From Shigella phage PSD9, in the sequence record MZ561532: 64,000 nucleotides of DNA; one strand, written 5' to 3'. Position numbers and translations under genes: made by a program. The notes below the pieces were generated by a model. It did not search any database. It was not told the origin of the DNA and saw only the letters and a program-made list of their open reading frames with translations. This document shows, in pieces, positions 3,167 through 47,193 of the stretch. Positions within the stretch are counted from its first letter, which is position 1; each line of letters opens with the position of its first letter.

Positions 3167-4095
3167 TGTATACTTTACAAGAATTTCAGAATCAGGCAAT
3201 TAATATTGACCTACAAAGGAATAACCTGTTTAGTGTGGTATTTGCCACAGTTCCTTCTTCTAAATCTCAGACGCTCCTCGACCAGTTCGGTGGAGCTTTA
3301 TTTAACAATATCCCATTGAATAGCGATTTGTTTGGTATTACACAAGGAGAGTTGACCCAAGGTGTTACGACATTAGTGACAGCGGGCACTCAGAAGTTGA
3401 TTCGTAAGTCAGGCATAAGTAAATATTTGATTGGAGCTATGTCATCCAGGGTTGTGCAGAGCTTACTAGGAGAGTTTGAAGTAGGTACATATCTGATGGA
3501 TTTTTTCAATATGGCCTATCCTACGGCAGGTCTTTTAGTCCACGCCGTTAAAATCCCGGATAATACTTTGAACTATGAAATGGATTTGAACCACAACTCA
3601 CCTAACATCAAAATTACCGGAAGAGAATATTCTCCATTAGTATTAAGCTTCCGTATGGATTCTGAAGCTGCTAACTACCGTGCTTTTAATGATTGGGTCA
3701 ATAGTGTTCAAGACCCTATTACACAATTAAGAGCATTACCGGAGGATGTTGAAGCTGACATTCAAGTCAACCTTCATTCCCGTAATGGATTACCACATAC
3801 GGTAGTAATGCTTAATGGTTGCGTTCCAATGAGCGTATCTTCCCCGGAATTATCTTACGACGGTGATAACCAAATTGCTTCATTTGATGTTACATTTGCT
3901 TATAGAAGTGTACAGACTGGTGCAGTTGGCAAACAAGCTGCTTATGAATGGTTGGAAGATAAAGTCCTTAAAGGCGTGGCGGGTATAAGTGAGAGCAATT
4001 CCCTGAGTTCTTCAGTAGCTAAATTAAGCCGACTTTCAGGAGCTTCTAGTGGATTAACAGGATTGGTTAATAGTGGAATATCGAGGTTGTTATAA
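3166..4095 (+). CDS. 54: baseplate tail-tube initiator gp54-like
   Basis: 309 aa (T4 gp54 about 320 aa); ATG overlaps stop of previous gene; terminator hairpin follows. Confidence 0.55.
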   Translation: MYTLQEFQNQAINIDLQRNNLFSVVFATVPSSKSQTLLDQFGGALFNNIPLNSDLFGITQGELTQGVTTLVTAGTQKLIRKSGISKYLIGAMSSRVVQSLLGEFEVGTYLMDFFNMAYPTAGLLVHAVKIPDNTLNYEMDLNHNSPNIKITGREYSPLVLSFRMDSEAANYRAFNDWVNSVQDPITQLRALPEDVEADIQVNLHSRNGLPHTVVMLNGCVPMSVSSPELSYDGDNQIASFDVTFAYRSVQTGAVGKQAAYEWLEDKVLKGVAGISESNSLSSSVAKLSRLSGASSGLTGLVNSGISRLL

Positions 4096-43038: not shown

Positions 43039-43050
43039 TTGGAGGTTTAT

Positions 43051-43845
43051 ATGGCAGTAGTAGGACCATGGGTTGGAGGGTCTGCAGTAGCTAATACAGG
43101 ACAAAACTGGATGGGTGGCGCTGCCCAGCGATTGAGAATGGGTATTCCGTTTTGGATGAGTAATATGAACGGTCGGTCTGTTGAAGTAATTCATACTTTA
43201 GGTGGGGACCATAACTTTAATGGGCAATGGTTCCGCGACCGTTGCTTTGAAGCCGGTAGTGCGCCTATTGTGTTTAATCTTACAGGTACATTAGTATCTT
43301 ATACCCGTGATGTTCCATTGTTCTTTATGTATGGGGATACTCCAAACGAATATGTTCAATTGAATATTGGTGGTGGGGTTCATATATGGGGCCGAGGTGG
43401 TCAAGGTGGATGGACCCACTCGGGTGGCGATGGCAACGGCCAATGGGGTGGAACTTGTATTGTAAATGATATTGGCGGTCGTTTAAGAATTAATAATGGT
43501 GGGGTTATCTGTGGCGGTGGCGGTGGCGGTGGCGGCATTGCGTGGCGTCCTTACTCAGGTGCTAACTGGCAAGATATCGGTGGTGGTGGTGGACGTCCAT
43601 TTGGTCCTGATGGCGGTGGTAGATTCTCCGGTGGTGGTGCTTCTTATGAAAGCCCTGGCGGTGGATACGATTTGGATAGAGCCCACTCAGGACATGGCGG
43701 TGATGCTGGTGCCTCAGGCCAGAACGCATGGTCTTATGGTGGTAAAGTTCTTAAAGTTGGGGCTGGGGGCGGCGCAGGAGCTGCTGTTGCTGGAAGTTCT
43801 CCTACTTGGCATAATACAGGTGTTATCTACGGTTCCTGGCTATAG
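43051..43845 (+). CDS. 38: tail fibre adhesin gp38, T2-type with glycine-rich motifs
   Basis: 264 aa from ATG (track starts at upstream TTG); [16 protein letters not shown] and [12 protein letters not shown] tracts typical of T2/T6-type adhesins. Confidence 0.75.
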
Positions 43846-43882: not shown

Positions 43883-44536
43883 ATGGAACCAAAAGTAGGA
43901 TTTTCATTATCAGACCTACTTTTTGGACTTCTTGATAGAATTTTTAAAGATACTTCTTCCGGGAAAGTAGTTTTTTCCCGGGTCCTAGTCGTGATATTAT
44001 TGTTCTTTATGGCATTGGTTTGGTATAAAGGCGAGTATATTCTAAACTTTTATAAAGAGACTACTTATGCCTCTTATACTGAAATGATTAGACAAGACCA
44101 GGACAATAGATTTAAAATTGCGGCTATCGAGCAGCTCCGAATAGTGCATTCTTCTTCAGGCGCAGACTTCACAGCAATATATTCTTTTAGACCAACCAAC
44201 ATGAATTATTTTGTGGATATGGTGGCTTACGAGGGTAAATTACCGGAAACGGTAGACGCAAAAAACACGGGAGGGTTTCCAATTGACAAAACGTCAGTAG
44301 AATATATGGCGGGAGTTAACGGGAACTATTTTGAATCAAGTACCGAAACTGTATTCCTTCCTACAAAGAAGAAAACACAATTCACGTATATGTTTTCATG
44401 CCCGTTTTTTAATTTGGATAACGTCTACGCCGGCTCGATATCGTTGTACTGGTATGATATCAAACCGGATTTAGGATTTCCTAGACTTTCGTCTATGTGC
44501 GGTCAGGCTGGGAGGACATTAGGTCGAACACGTTAG
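43883..44536 (+). CDS. t: holin
   Basis: 217 aa; close match to T4 holin T (SDLLFGLLDR..., single TM, large periplasmic domain). Confidence 0.85.
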   Translation: MEPKVGFSLSDLLFGLLDRIFKDTSSGKVVFSRVLVVILLFFMALVWYKGEYILNFYKETTYASYTEMIRQDQDNRFKIAAIEQLRIVHSSSGADFTAIYSFRPTNMNYFVDMVAYEGKLPETVDAKNTGGFPIDKTSVEYMAGVNGNYFESSTETVFLPTKKKTQFTYMFSCPFFNLDNVYAGSISLYWYDIKPDLGFPRLSSMCGQAGRTLGRTR

Positions 44537-44808
44537 AAATTGGAGGTATACATCATTAAGTAACGGTGTATATCTTCATACCCTTCATTAAATTGCTCAA
44601 TAAGAGTGTCACGTTCATCTTCAGTTAATGACTTAAATAATTTGTTATAAGACAAACCGTTAAGTTCCTTTCCGTGTTCATTACGAATACCTAACTCATT
44701 CAAAAAGGCAATAAACTCATCACGACGTTGCATGATGTCTTCACAATCCGTTTTAATCAAAATGGAAACAATAGTAGCAATTTCGGAAACAATTTCAATT
44801 TTAGTCAT
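44533..44808 (-). CDS. asiA: anti-sigma70 factor AsiA
   Basis: 91 aa; strong similarity to T4 AsiA (...IAFLNELG...EQFNEGYEDIHRYLMMYT...). Confidence 0.8.
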   Translation of the reverse strand: MTKIEIVSEIATIVSILIKTDCEDIMQRRDEFIAFLNELGIRNEHGKELNGLSYNKLFKSLTEDERDTLIEQFNEGYEDIHRYLMMYTSNF

Positions 44809-44849: not shown

Positions 44850-44878
44850 ATACTAACATATCCTTAGGGATTGTAAAC
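44850..44878 (-). promoter_or_regulatory. T4-type early promoter (GTTTAC-N17-TAGTAT) for asiA
   Basis: Conserved hexamers upstream of asiA. Confidence 0.45.
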
Positions 44879-45022
44879 ATGTTTTTCGTTCTTTTTAACA
44901 TATTCCTGATACATCTCTTCTATTGGTTCCTGGAACTTAAAATCAGCTCCCAGGAATTCCTCAAAGCACTCCTGCTCACGTGTACGCATGCCTGTTACGG
45001 TATTCTCTAAGTTATGACTCAT
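44864..45022 (-). CDS. possible small acidic protein, 52 aa (not in ORF track)
   Basis: ATG preceded by AAGGGTAAAGG; hand translation MSHNLENTVTGMRTREQECFEEFLGADFKFQEPIEEMYQEYVKKNEKHVYNP. Confidence 0.3.
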   Translation of the reverse strand: MSHNLENTVTGMRTREQECFEEFLGADFKFQEPIEEMYQEYVKKNEKHVYNP

Positions 45023-45111
45023 AGCCTTTACCCTTATGTTTCTGTTTACGTTTAGACTCTTTAAGGTTTTTCTTTTTGTCCTTGTGGACCGAAGCCTTAT
45101 TGAAATCGTGC

Positions 45112-45393
45112 TTAGCTACCAGATTGTTCACGTAATTTCCTTAATTGATATTCAAGAGAGCTGATAATTTCTTTATTAGTTGCAATATACATATCACGTA
45201 GGAACGGCTTCAACCCTTCCATATTACCATGGATTGTCTTAGAACTAATATTCTTTATATATTCGTGGTCTAAGGCATCCCAAGCCGGTTGGTTGACATA
45301 AGTTCCCCAGTTGTCTTCCACCATGACATTAAGACGTTTAACATGATTAATATGGGCTTCGATTGCATCAATCTGGAGTTGTTTAAGATTCAT
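45112..45393 (-). CDS. arn: anti-restriction nuclease Arn-like
   Basis: 93 aa (T4 Arn 92 aa), between asiA and motA as in T4; sequence not independently verified. Confidence 0.45.
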   Translation of the reverse strand: MNLKQLQIDAIEAHINHVKRLNVMVEDNWGTYVNQPAWDALDHEYIKNISSKTIHGNMEGLKPFLRDMYIATNKEIISSLEYQLRKLREQSGS

Positions 45394-45881
45394 TAGTAAA
45401 GGTCCTCAGAGTAAAGTTCTTTTTCACTGCCACCACGTTCAATACGAACTTGATTAGCATAAGTCGCAATAATCATTGCTTCTTCGCGAGTCCAATAGTT
45501 TGAATATTGGTCAATAAATCCTTGGTCATCACCACAAACATGGTCTGATACAAGTTTATCACTTACCTGGTCGAGAACTTCAGCCATATCTTTAGAATAA
45601 TGACGAGCACCAGGAATAACCAGAGTCCCACCGTCTTTTAACTTAAAGCGGTTGGCAGCACACACAATCCTGCGCTGATATTTTTCATTGTTGTTCCAAT
45701 AGGCAATCTGCCAACATATTTCAGGAACCTCTTCTAAAACATCCTCTTCTGTATATTCGGTGTAATCACCATATGCCCGTAATTTAGCTGCTAGACTTTC
45801 AGGCGTCTCACGAGAAAGAGCTTTATCTAATAAAGCCATACGGTCTTTAAAGGATAATGCTTTACCTTTTAATAGATTCAT
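45393..45881 (-). CDS. hypothetical protein
   Basis: 162-aa ORF, stop/start coupled to arn. Confidence 0.45.
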
Positions 45882-46216
45882 TTGAAAATCACCTTATGGC
45901 CGTTATCTTTAGCAAATTCTTGAATTTTGGTGGCAGTTTCAATTAAATCACCTTTATAATAGGATGATAATTTAATATTAACTGTTTGGCCCTCGCCATA
46001 CGAAGTTATATTTACCTTTTCAATAAAAATAATCTCAAGAAATCGTAATAACTGCATACCAAATTCAAGATAAACGTTATCAATCTGGAGATCGAGTTGG
46101 TAAATTTTCTTAATACCGCTTACCAAAGCTACACGCTCGTCCCAATCATTACGTTGTTCTTCAATCAATTTAAGGGAATGACCTTCACCGTCCCAGTTAA
46201 GTTCCATCGGAATCAT
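45878..46216 (-). CDS. hypothetical protein
   Basis: Start set at ATG (MIPMELN...) with AAGGA SD and ATGA overlap. Confidence 0.4.
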
Positions 46217-46542
46217 TTGAACCATCCTTTAATACGCTGCCATAAAGATTTCTGTTGAGCTTTATTAACACCAATTGAACGGATAACCGGTTGTGATTCT
46301 TGGTATTCTTTGTAGTCCGCTTTATAGACTTCATAAGCCGCTGGGACAAAGGTGCTGATTGCCGCCATAAAGTTTTTGCGAATTCCCATAGAAGCTTCAG
46401 AACCACCACGGATGATTAAGTATTTACCTGCTTTAATCTTAACAATAGTGCCGAGATAAGCACCGTGGTACCAAATGTCCCAACCTTCTTGAGTAGGTTC
46501 TGCACAACGACGAAGTTCATTAACAATATTAAGCTTGTTCAT
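46213..46542 (-). CDS. hypothetical protein
   Basis: 109-aa basic ORF directly downstream of motA. Confidence 0.45.
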   Translation of the reverse strand: MNKLNIVNELRRCAEPTQEGWDIWYHGAYLGTIVKIKAGKYLIIRGGSEASMGIRKNFMAAISTFVPAAYEVYKADYKEYQESQPVIRSIGVNKAQQKSLWQRIKGWFK

Positions 46543-46560: not shown

Positions 46561-47193
46561 TTAAATTGCGTTGGTTACGGTTTTGATAACTTCAGATGAT
46601 ACGTTTTGGAAGTCGATATAAGTATTCTTACCACCAGTCTTAATCTTAACATCAAGATTCAAGGAAGTAAACACTTGTTTTTCTTTATCAGTCATATTAT
46701 AACCGAAGATGCGCATCATTCCGTCACGACGGACTTCAATTTGACGAATACCATTGGTACGTTTAGCGAATCGAACTTCAAGGTTGCTACGGTTTTCAGC
46801 AATTTCACGAATCTCGATACGGTCTTCTAATAAAGCTTTAACTTCATCAGCCAGTGTTACCATTTCAGGAGTAACACCACGTGAACTACGCGTTTTACGT
46901 TTTTCCAACATCTCTGGAGCATTTTCAGAAGCGAACAAGTCAGCAGCTTTTTGAACTAGGTCCATTGCTTCACCCGTAGCCACTAAACCATCACCGGATT
47001 TTTCGATGAATCCTTTCTTAATCAATACACCGATGTTAGAGTTAACTACCGCAGCACTAAATTGCTCACTCAGGGCTTCACGGACTTCGCCTGAAGTGAT
47101 GAAGTTATGCTTGATGATATGTACTAAGATCGAAGCAGTTTTTTCATTCAGGACGTCTTCAGAAGCTTTGATGATATAAGTAATTTTAGACAT
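46561..47193 (-). CDS. motA: middle-transcription activator MotA
   Basis: Start set at MSKITYIIKAS matching T4 MotA; 210 aa; track start is an upstream GTG. Confidence 0.85.
   Translation of the reverse strand: MSKITYIIKASEDVLNEKTASILVHIIKHNFITSGEVREALSEQFSAAVVNSNIGVLIKKGFIEKSGDGLVATGEAMDLVQKAADLFASENAPEMLEKRKTRSSRGVTPEMVTLADEVKALLEDRIEIREIAENRSNLEVRFAKRTNGIRQIEVRRDGMMRIFGYNMTDKEKQVFTSLNLDVKIKTGGKNTYIDFQNVSSEVIKTVTNAI

Follow-up and report, generated by a model that had tools for sequence, protein, structure and literature searches.

A CmdA-like module on the T-even phage protein Arn.3 makes arn.3 a candidate counter-defence gene

Directly downstream of motA, a 64,000-nt stretch of DNA from Shigella phage PSD9 (sequence record MZ561532; hereafter the window) encodes three short proteins: Arn.4, the product of a 112-codon open reading frame (ORF) that we call the middle ORF, and Arn.3. 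The genes and modules of this cluster described below all lie on the minus strand. The N-terminal part of Arn.3 contains a module, here termed the A module (aa 9-40; 45762-45857), that is predicted to form a two-helix hairpin and whose homology to the structured N-terminal domain (PD-T4-9_B) of CmdA, the antitoxin of the anti-T-even defence system CmdTAC, is well supported by sequence comparison. While arn.3 and arn.4 are already catalogued T-even genes, the CmdA-type module on Arn.3 is new: we found no prior report of this homology in the literature, and the paper on CmdTAC makes no mention of arn. On this evidence we regard arn.3 as a candidate counter-defence gene. A first-pass annotation of the window had proposed all three ORFs as candidates for new inhibitors, a proposal that gains substance for arn.3, through its antitoxin-like module, but not for arn.4 or the middle ORF.

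Homology between the A module and CmdA

CmdTAC, which corresponds to PD-T4-9, is a toxin-antitoxin-chaperone (TAC) system composed of CmdT, an mRNA ADP-ribosyltransferase toxin, the antitoxin CmdA, encoded by the second gene, and the SecB-like chaperone CmdC, encoded by the third; in its published context (ECOR22) it resides on a P2-like prophage. The system is triggered when a T-even capsid protein competes CmdC off CmdA, whereupon ClpP-dependent proteolysis removes the antitoxin and the freed CmdT ADP-ribosylates mRNA. CmdA, which ClpXP degrades by way of an unstructured tail and an LAA degron, helps CmdT to fold besides neutralising it; even so, cmdT together with cmdA kills the cell when cmdC is missing (PMC11618068). 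The antitoxins of CmdTAC systems that are otherwise homologous have been described as "widely variable" in sequence.

In a PADLOC scan, the window's Arn.3 aligned through its residues 9-40 with positions 2-33 of the 77 in the PD-T4-9_B profile (E = 2.3e-9). When 44 diverse Arn.3 homologs were aligned (alignment A1), matches to this profile were confined to 15 of them, exactly those that carry an A module, with a best E-value of 2e-12; the A module of T4 is diverged and scores E = 0.0026. We also built a profile (A2) from phage A modules alone and searched it against 1.84 billion representative proteins, which returned 38 matches at E <=0.001, including proteins of 75-94 aa that have the module at their N-terminus and end in LAA, MAA, QAA, or EAA. 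Two of the proteins retrieved, P0178 and P0179, matched at about 1e-9 (P0178 at 8e-10), and P0178 is a genuine CmdA: it matches PD-T4-9_B end to end (E = 4e-35), it is flanked in its locus (L005) by CmdT (PD-T4-9_A, E = 6e-92) and CmdC (PD-T4-9_C, E = 4e-59), and it sits between replication and portal genes in a hypervariable region of a P2-like prophage, the setting published for CmdTAC. A direct BLASTP alignment of P0178 with the window's Arn.3 spans 32 aa at 56% identity (E = 3e-10), such that the A module of the window is closer to CmdA (56%) than to the corresponding module of T4 (47%). A tblastn search of 50,697 phage records with the A module recovered T-even arn.3 genes and a few weak matches, and no P2-type CmdA was among the results.

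Beyond CmdA and Arn.3, the module occurs in a range of other proteins. It is fused to DUF551 (P0183) and to other C-terminal domains (P0177/P0201, P0181, P0194, P0195, P0198, and P0210), and it also forms stand-alone proteins (P0196, P0192, and P0208). In the early accessory region of lambdoid/P22-like metagenomic contigs (L011 and L012), a 192-aa protein (L011, 4001-4579) combines the A module (PADLOC E = 6e-14) with a terminal DUF551. One further protein of 140 aa (P0197) appears to consist of the C-terminal region of CmdT run into the CmdA N-terminal domain, which is probably a frameshift or a gene-calling fusion and confirms that CmdT and CmdA are adjacent.

Architecture of Arn.3

The 162-aa product of arn.3 (45393-45881; Pfam PF26092, T4_Y16D; phrog_839, E = 2e-72) is made up of the A module, a linker, and a phage-only core of about 110 residues (aa 53-162; 45396-45725), and all of the 384 Arn.3 homologs are tagged PF26092. 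In alignment A1, the core is marked by invariant R93-H94, Q120-G121-F122-x-D124, R132, Q144, and a C-terminal S-E-D-L-Y, with variable N-termini ahead of it. The AlphaFold2 (AF2) model has a mean predicted local distance difference test score (pLDDT) of 86.8, reaching 94-97 in the core, and places helices at residues 11-23 and 27-36; residue 14, in the hairpin, is a conserved Arg. No relative of the core was found among PDB sequences or PDB folds, and none of the three ORFs had a significant match in Pfam-A, NCBIfam, or PDB sequences, whether single sequences or profiles served as queries; weak matches to DNA_gyraseB, Ribosomal_S10, and TNFSF14 fell below the cut-offs and were dismissed. Comparison of the Arn.3 model with BFVD yielded weak similarity (E = 5e-3 to 0.1, low TM-score) to parts of proteins from uncultured phages that are labelled "large polyvalent protein-associated domain". 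Such polyvalent proteins are considered to be collections of counter-defence domains.

The two parts of Arn.3 differ in their rates of change. Overall, the protein is 76% identical to T4 Arn.3 over 152 aa (E = 3e-83), with 47% identity in the A module and 85% in the core. In one homolog of 203 aa, encoded on a 170-kb NCBI phage contig (P0001), two A modules stand in tandem before a single core, the first of the type found in Dhakavirus and the second of the T4 type. The core probably serves a separate function, either enzymatic or ligand-binding, since it is kept without an A module in many phages.

The variety of proteins that bear an A module opens an explanation in which CmdT is not a target at all: the module could act generically, as a helical-hairpin adaptor or an aid to folding, and chaperone, autoinhibit, or regulate whatever domain it is fused to, with CmdTAC having recruited the same module. 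That it precedes many unrelated C-terminal domains, that conservation in the Arn.3 family lies in the core, and that phages with an A module are still restricted by CmdTAC all speak for such an adaptor acting in cis. Nonetheless, the core is stable, and is conserved in most phages without the module, and hence needs no helper in cis; the module evolves much faster than the domain it would serve; and the Dhakavirus module resembles CmdA more than it does its T4 ortholog, as is more readily understood if selection favoured a match to an external partner. We therefore consider an adaptor role in cis improbable, if worth keeping in view.

A possible antitoxin decoy

The reading that we rank first, with modest confidence (a probability of roughly 0.35), is that Arn.3 serves as an orphan-antitoxin decoy against CmdT-type toxins. 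Under this model, the hairpin would be the part of CmdA that contacts the toxin, as the architecture of TAC systems suggests, because the C-terminal extension is the chaperone-binding element in TAC antitoxins. The stable globular domain that replaces the tail and degron would make Arn.3 independent of the chaperone and resistant to proteolysis, Arn.3 would re-neutralise CmdT-family toxins during infection, and the fast-evolving A module would set the specificity of the interaction. Circumstantial support comes from the pace at which the module changes relative to the core and from the closer match of the Dhakavirus module to CmdA than to T4, which may be the signature of an arms race, and from the portability of the module, seen in the varied domains to which it is fused and in the tandem modules of P0001. 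Phage orphan antitoxins against DarTG offer a precedent.

Several observations weigh against a decoy. T4 carries a diverged A module, yet it is strongly restricted by CmdTAC, and T4 mutants that escape the system map only to alt.-3 and never to arn.3. No A module is present in 29 of the 44 sampled Arn.3 homologs, and with most of the family lacking it, the primary function of Arn.3 should reside in the core. The assignment of the toxin-binding surface to the CmdA hairpin is our inference, for which we found no statement in the literature, and the residues common to the CmdA and Arn.3 modules may be largely those that determine the fold. Moreover, PADLOC and profile searches, together with a fold search for the middle ORF, revealed nothing that links either arn.4 or the middle ORF to defence.

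Natural variation among T-even phages

Differences in CmdTAC sensitivity within the BASEL collection bear on the same question. We extracted arn.3 from all 13 BASEL T-even phages, two of which, Bas35 and Bas38, naturally escape CmdTAC, and scored the modules with a hidden Markov model of genuine CmdA N-terminal domains. A diverged, T4-type module scoring 17-21 bits is present in T4 and in eight BASEL phages, which are sensitive, and both natural escapers carry a CmdA-like module (23-27 bits) rather than the T4 type. However, CmdA-like modules that score at or above those of the escapers (31-32 bits) also occur in Bas36, Bas46, and Bas47, which are not among the two reported exceptions; the module of the window phage scores 35.8 bits. 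There is thus no clean split between module type and outcome: a CmdA-like module is found in 2/2 resistant phages versus 3/11 of the others, which gives no statistical support for an association (Fisher one-sided p = 0.13), and the A module is not sufficient for escape from ECOR22 CmdTAC. Pair-specific matching could reconcile these data with a decoy, but to invoke it amounts to special pleading.

The sole published route of escape from CmdTAC is a C-terminal extension of Alt.-3, which arose as a laboratory mutation. Alt.-3 is 96 aa long in all five phages that we examined, and its sequence in the resistant Bas35 is identical to that in the sensitive T4, as is that in the resistant Bas38 to that in the sensitive Bas36. 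These identical alleles led us to reject Alt.-3 as the cause of resistance in Bas35 and Bas38, a result that does not implicate Arn.3 either.

The cluster and its transcription

On the minus strand, the genes run in the order motA, the 109-aa arn.4, the 112-aa middle ORF, the 162-aa arn.3, the 93-aa arn.2, a 39-aa ORF, a 52-aa ORF, and asiA. At the upstream end, motA (46561-47193) is identified by Pfam MotA_activ (E = 4e-39) and MotCF (E = 1e-13) and by 50% identity to T4 MotA, and it is separated from arn.4 by 18 nt; at the downstream end, asiA (44533-44808) matches Pfam AsiA (E = 1e-21). Over the 2.8 kb around the three ORFs, identity is 98.4% with phage vB_EcoM_FB and 97.8% with Bp7, which makes the window a T-even phage segment of the JS98/Bp7 group, genus Dhakavirus. 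After gp37, the gene at 43039-43845 encodes a glycine-rich adhesin of the T2/T6 gp38 type rather than a T4-type gp38 chaperone, which fits a JS98-like identity.

Whether the three ORFs are real genes was judged by their stop/start overlaps, by Shine-Dalgarno sites, and by the ratio of nonsynonymous to synonymous substitutions (dN/dS) in comparisons with JS98 and NC-G. Arn.4 and the middle ORF overlap at ATGA, as do the middle ORF and arn.3, and arn.3 overlaps the next gene at TAATG; a Shine-Dalgarno site precedes each of the three; and, at dS values of 0.27-0.55, dN/dS amounts to 0.02 for arn.4, 0.11-0.13 for the middle ORF, and 0.02-0.03 for arn.3. The notion that they, or at least the middle one, are chance ORFs draws on the middle ORF being left unannotated in the JS98 record, belonging to no Pfam family, and having just five cluster representatives. 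Yet this ORF shows its low dN/dS at a dS of about 0.3, is found uninterrupted in 47 phage records (63-100% identity), follows a proper Shine-Dalgarno sequence, is ATGA-coupled at both ends, and is predicted to have a foldable alpha/beta body. A chance origin, to which we give next to no credence, is effectively refuted: all three ORFs are genuine, translationally coupled genes under purifying selection, and their coordinates, lengths, and coupling were correctly described from the outset.

A promoter scan located a sigma70-like promoter with a TG element upstream of motA (47259->47232). The first-pass annotation had placed the cluster in the same operon as asiA, which stands insofar as the genes are co-directional and no terminator-like site lies on the coding strand between the motA and asiA promoters, apart from a weak one inside asiA; asiA is, however, preceded by a sigma70-like promoter of its own, in which the -10 is extended (44877->44850). 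A strict MotA-box pattern for middle promoters found no coding-strand site within 44.5-47.3 kb, and Rfam searches of both strands produced sub-threshold noise only. The three ORFs are probably co-transcribed with motA, and readthrough into asiA may occur. In T2, arn.4-arn.3-arn.2-arn.1-arn form a single abundant middle transcript (bioRxiv 10.64898/2026.06.19.733364), and in both T4 and T2, the last gene of the equivalent transcript is arn, a bona fide anti-restriction gene.

This setting invites a more mundane explanation, in which the genes encode ordinary T-even early or middle accessory proteins of host takeover, for example modulators of transcription, RNA metabolism, or nucleotide pools, with no role against defences, and the similarity to CmdA is a relic of exchange between phages and prophages. 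It accords with the co-directional placement of the cluster directly after motA and terminator-free before asiA, with the conservation of Arn.3 and Arn.4 across T-even phages at very low dN/dS, with the invariant polar residues of the Arn.3 core, which are typical of an enzyme or ligand binder, with the lack of anti-defence similarity in arn.4 and the middle ORF, and with CmdTAC itself being phage-borne, on P2-like prophages. Against it stand the searches of Pfam, NCBIfam, PDB sequences, and PDB folds, which uncovered no characterised housekeeping or takeover relative, the turnover of cassettes and the presence/absence variation at the locus, which are typical of conflict genes, and the ending of the T4/T2 transcript in an anti-restriction gene. 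On balance, we hold an ordinary accessory role for the whole cluster to be unlikely.

The middle ORF

The middle ORF (45878-46216; phrog_14178, E = 4e-68 over 1-112 of 112) starts at the second of two possible ATG codons, which is preceded by an AAGGA Shine-Dalgarno sequence and gives a 112-aa product; the first ATG, at 46225, would give 115 aa and overlaps its own Shine-Dalgarno site. Among the T4 proteins encoded from arn to motA, BLASTP detected no counterpart, and only five cluster representatives exist among 5.8 billion proteins. The ORF is present in 52 of the 50,697 phage records, all of them Dhakavirus or Gaprivervirus-like, in 47 of which the match covers at least 80% of its length (63-100% identity), and it is always situated between arn.4 and arn.3. 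Its body (approximately residues 39-111) is predicted to adopt a beta-alpha-beta-beta-alpha-beta arrangement, a generic ferredoxin-like fold that, as modelled, gives no lead to function.

The first 20 codons of the middle ORF (46157-46216), which we call the M module, are disordered in the AF2 model (pLDDT <50) and recur in other phages as the leader of arn.3 itself, joined either directly to the core (P0081, P0031, and P0093) or to an A module and core (P0021, P0022, P0028, and P0209). In the metagenomic locus L018, the order is motA, arn.4, and an arn.3 with M, A, and core, and the middle ORF is absent. Conversely, loci L019 and L020 have an M-less middle ORF of 100 aa in the same slot, followed by an arn.3 with A and core, and P0124 and P0125 are likewise M-less middle ORFs in this position.

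The boundaries of the middle ORF are marked by a 12-nt direct repeat whose two copies are identical at 11 of 12 positions (TTCAAATGA(A/T)TC). The left copy (TTCAAATGATTC on the coding strand; 46210-46221) spans the arn.4 stop and the middle-ORF start, and the right copy (TTCAAATGAATC on the coding strand; 45875-45886; repeat family D6) spans the middle-ORF stop and the arn.3 start; each of the two junctions has the sequence ...TTC AAA TGA, overlapped by an ATG. The arn.4/arn.3 junction of T4 contains the same motif (GGTTTAAATGAAC) in a single copy. Another 12-nt direct repeat, ATCAATCTGGAG, this one perfect, occurs in the 5' part of arn.2 (45367-45378) and in the middle ORF (46079-46090), possibly by chance.

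The architecture shows the middle ORF to be a cassette located exactly at the arn.4/arn.3 junction. Since it bears the M leader that elsewhere heads arn.3, we infer that an insertion between M and A split an ancestral arn.3 with M, A, and core; the inserted cassette would thus have inherited the start of arn.3. In Bas35 (MZ501113; locus L024, 3341-3496, minus strand), a 51-aa ORF occupies the same junction and begins with MKTFK, the first five residues of the Arn.3 of this phage, and is a second, independent insert that captured the arn.3 start. The locus is as variable as the first-pass annotation supposed: arn and arn.1 are present in T4 and not here, the middle ORF is restricted to the few records given above, Bas35 has its own insert, and the N-termini of Arn.3 are modular.

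Arn.4

The gene after motA (46213-46542; PF26821, Phage_T4_Y16F; phrog_1594, E = 2e-53 over 1-109) encodes an Arn.4 ortholog of 109 aa, which is 78% identical to T4 Arn.4 over the 68 aa of the latter (E = 2e-38), and has a GAGGA Shine-Dalgarno sequence 8 nt ahead of its ATG. All 48 cluster representatives related to Arn.4 belong to PF26821, and 47 of them are 107-114 aa long, which makes the 109-aa form the norm of the family. Its members share invariant Cys13, Trp21, Trp24, and Gly27 and a basic amphipathic C-terminus; searches of Pfam-A, NCBIfam, PADLOC, and PDB sequences turned up no relative. In T4 (NC_000866; locus L004, about 3335-3460, minus strand), the 41 codons upstream of the annotated arn.4 are intact, in frame, and preceded by a Shine-Dalgarno site, with an ATA at the position of the ATG of the window. 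Either T4 arn.4 initiates at this ATA or at an internal Met, or it has suffered a recent lesion. With neither PADLOC nor other anti-defence similarity to guide us, our best guess is that Arn.4 and the middle ORF are further accessory proteins of host interaction or counter-defence.

Gene identities and the absence of arn

Gene identities were assigned by comparing the ORFs, using BLASTP, with the proteins that T4 encodes between arn and motA (locus L004, NC_000866). The 93-aa neighbour that the first-pass annotation had called arn (45112-45393; phrog_1844) proved to be arn.2, with 38% identity to T4 Arn.2 (E = 3e-20), and neither it nor any of the three ORFs matched T4 Arn; likewise, the view that none of the three resembles a recognised protein had to be abandoned for two of them, the orthologs of Arn.3 and Arn.4 at the identities given above. 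Queried with Arn and Arn.1 of T4 and of BASEL phages, tblastn found no homolog anywhere in the 64 kb (best E = 0.15), and the segment is, by this evidence, without arn and arn.1. The functions of these genes remain unassigned, as first noted: arn.1-arn.4 are stated to "remain unknown" in function (bioRxiv 10.64898/2026.06.19.733364), and the literature to mid-2026 is of the same opinion on arn.3 and arn.4.

The names arn.2, arn.3, and arn.4 are already used in the JS98 and Bp7 records, and the corresponding Pfam families (PF26819 Phage_T4_Y16C for Arn.2, PF26092 T4_Y16D for Arn.3, and PF26821 Phage_T4_Y16F for Arn.4) are named for T4 ORFs, which implies no function. Many Arn.2, Arn.3, and Arn.4 homologs in GenBank and UniRef nevertheless bear the product name "anti-restriction nuclease", which is a case of name propagation, based on the prefix of the gene name alone. 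In the Bp7 record (HQ829472), motA is split into two coding sequences and the middle ORF is mislabelled "arn.3"; in that of JS98 (EF469154), the intact middle ORF was left unannotated.

Downstream of arn.2, the 39-aa ORF (45012-45131), which overlaps it, matches Pfam DUF7230 (E = 5e-13), and the N-terminus of the 52-aa ORF (within 44864-45393) resembles T4 asiA.1. In T2, a regulatory module follows at this point, with an ArcZ site at the 3' end of arn.2 and a 70-nt intergenic region containing an RNase E site, and then arn.1 and arn (bioRxiv 10.64898/2026.06.19.733364). There is no obvious counterpart of this module in 44864-45393 of the window, because arn and arn.1 are absent and the 39-aa and 52-aa ORFs follow arn.2 instead.

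Implications and comparison with known systems

Arn.3 and Arn.4 have long ranked among the "known unknowns" of the most thoroughly studied phage family; for Arn.3, the presence of the structured half of CmdA now provides a first functional hypothesis that is concrete and cheap to test. Should the decoy model hold, Arn.3 would represent the first counter-measure against a TAC system to be proposed for a phage, would extend the orphan-antitoxin strategy from enzymatic (DarG/NADAR-type) antitoxins to binding-type ones, which are hard to spot bioinformatically, and would show how phages free a degradable antitoxin from the elements that make it unstable. A bolder version of the model, which we put forward as speculation that is unlikely to hold, would have Arn.3 as a degron-free, chaperone-independent type II antitoxin mimic that neutralises mRNA ADP-ribosyltransferases of the CmdT family, the A module as a portable anti-TAC "warhead" that is grafted onto various stable scaffolds (the Arn.3 core, DUF551, and others) and has diversified to track CmdT/CmdA variants, and the arn.4/arn.3 junction as a hot spot for the insertion of counter-defence cassettes (the 112-aa ORF here and the 51-aa ORF of Bas35) that capture the arn.3 translation start. 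If the decoy model is false, the shared module still documents that lytic T-even phages and a defence system carried by prophages have exchanged domains. The corrected annotation, whatever the functions, stops the spread of misleading names, in that arn is not present here and reference records mislabel the middle ORF or omit it.

Within the T4 locus, the closest counterparts are orthologs in the same order. T4 Arn.3 (Y16D_BPT4) occupies the same slot between arn.4 and arn.2, has the same A module and core, and shares the core motifs including SEDLY; the Arn.3 of the window has eight extra N-terminal residues. T4 Arn.4 (Y16F_BPT4) is also encoded directly after motA, but as annotated it lacks the first 41 residues of the full-length form seen here. 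The 112-aa ORF between arn.4 and arn.3 is the one positional difference between the two loci. With T4 Arn itself, an anti-restriction nuclease protein that inhibits McrBC, the window has in common only the name prefix and the T4 neighbourhood: no ORF here, the 93-aa neighbour included, has sequence similarity to it.

Compared with CmdA, Arn.3 shares the N-terminal helix pair at aa 9-40 and departs from it thereafter. Whereas CmdA continues into an unstructured chaperone-addiction (ChAD) tail and ends in an LAA-type ClpXP degron, the match of Arn.3 ends at profile position 33 of 77 and gives way to a folded globular domain, ending in a SEDLY that is invariant across the family; and whereas cmdA lies between the genes for CmdT and the SecB-like CmdC, arn.3 lies between the middle ORF and arn.2. 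Neither the Arn.3 core nor any other ORF of the cluster has similarity to CmdT or CmdC, for which reason we rejected the cluster as a phage copy of an entire TAC system. As a whole protein, Arn.3 is not a member of the CmdA family, but a lytic-phage protein with a phage-specific core of 110 aa.

Phages are known to counter toxin-based defences with antitoxins of their own. T4 Dmd acts against RnlA/LsoA. Against DarTG, orphan antitoxins or mimics include AdfN, a NADAR protein that opposes DarTG1 in T4-like phages, and an antitoxin mimic of ICP1. The concept common to these and to the model proposed for Arn.3 is a stand-alone counterpart of the antitoxin, carried by a lytic phage, that neutralises the toxin of a defence system. 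They differ in mode of action: AdfN and DarG-like proteins work enzymatically, undoing the modification by the logic of type IV systems, whereas the Arn.3 module would act as a binding decoy in the style of type II systems, derived from the structured half of an antitoxin and grafted onto another domain.

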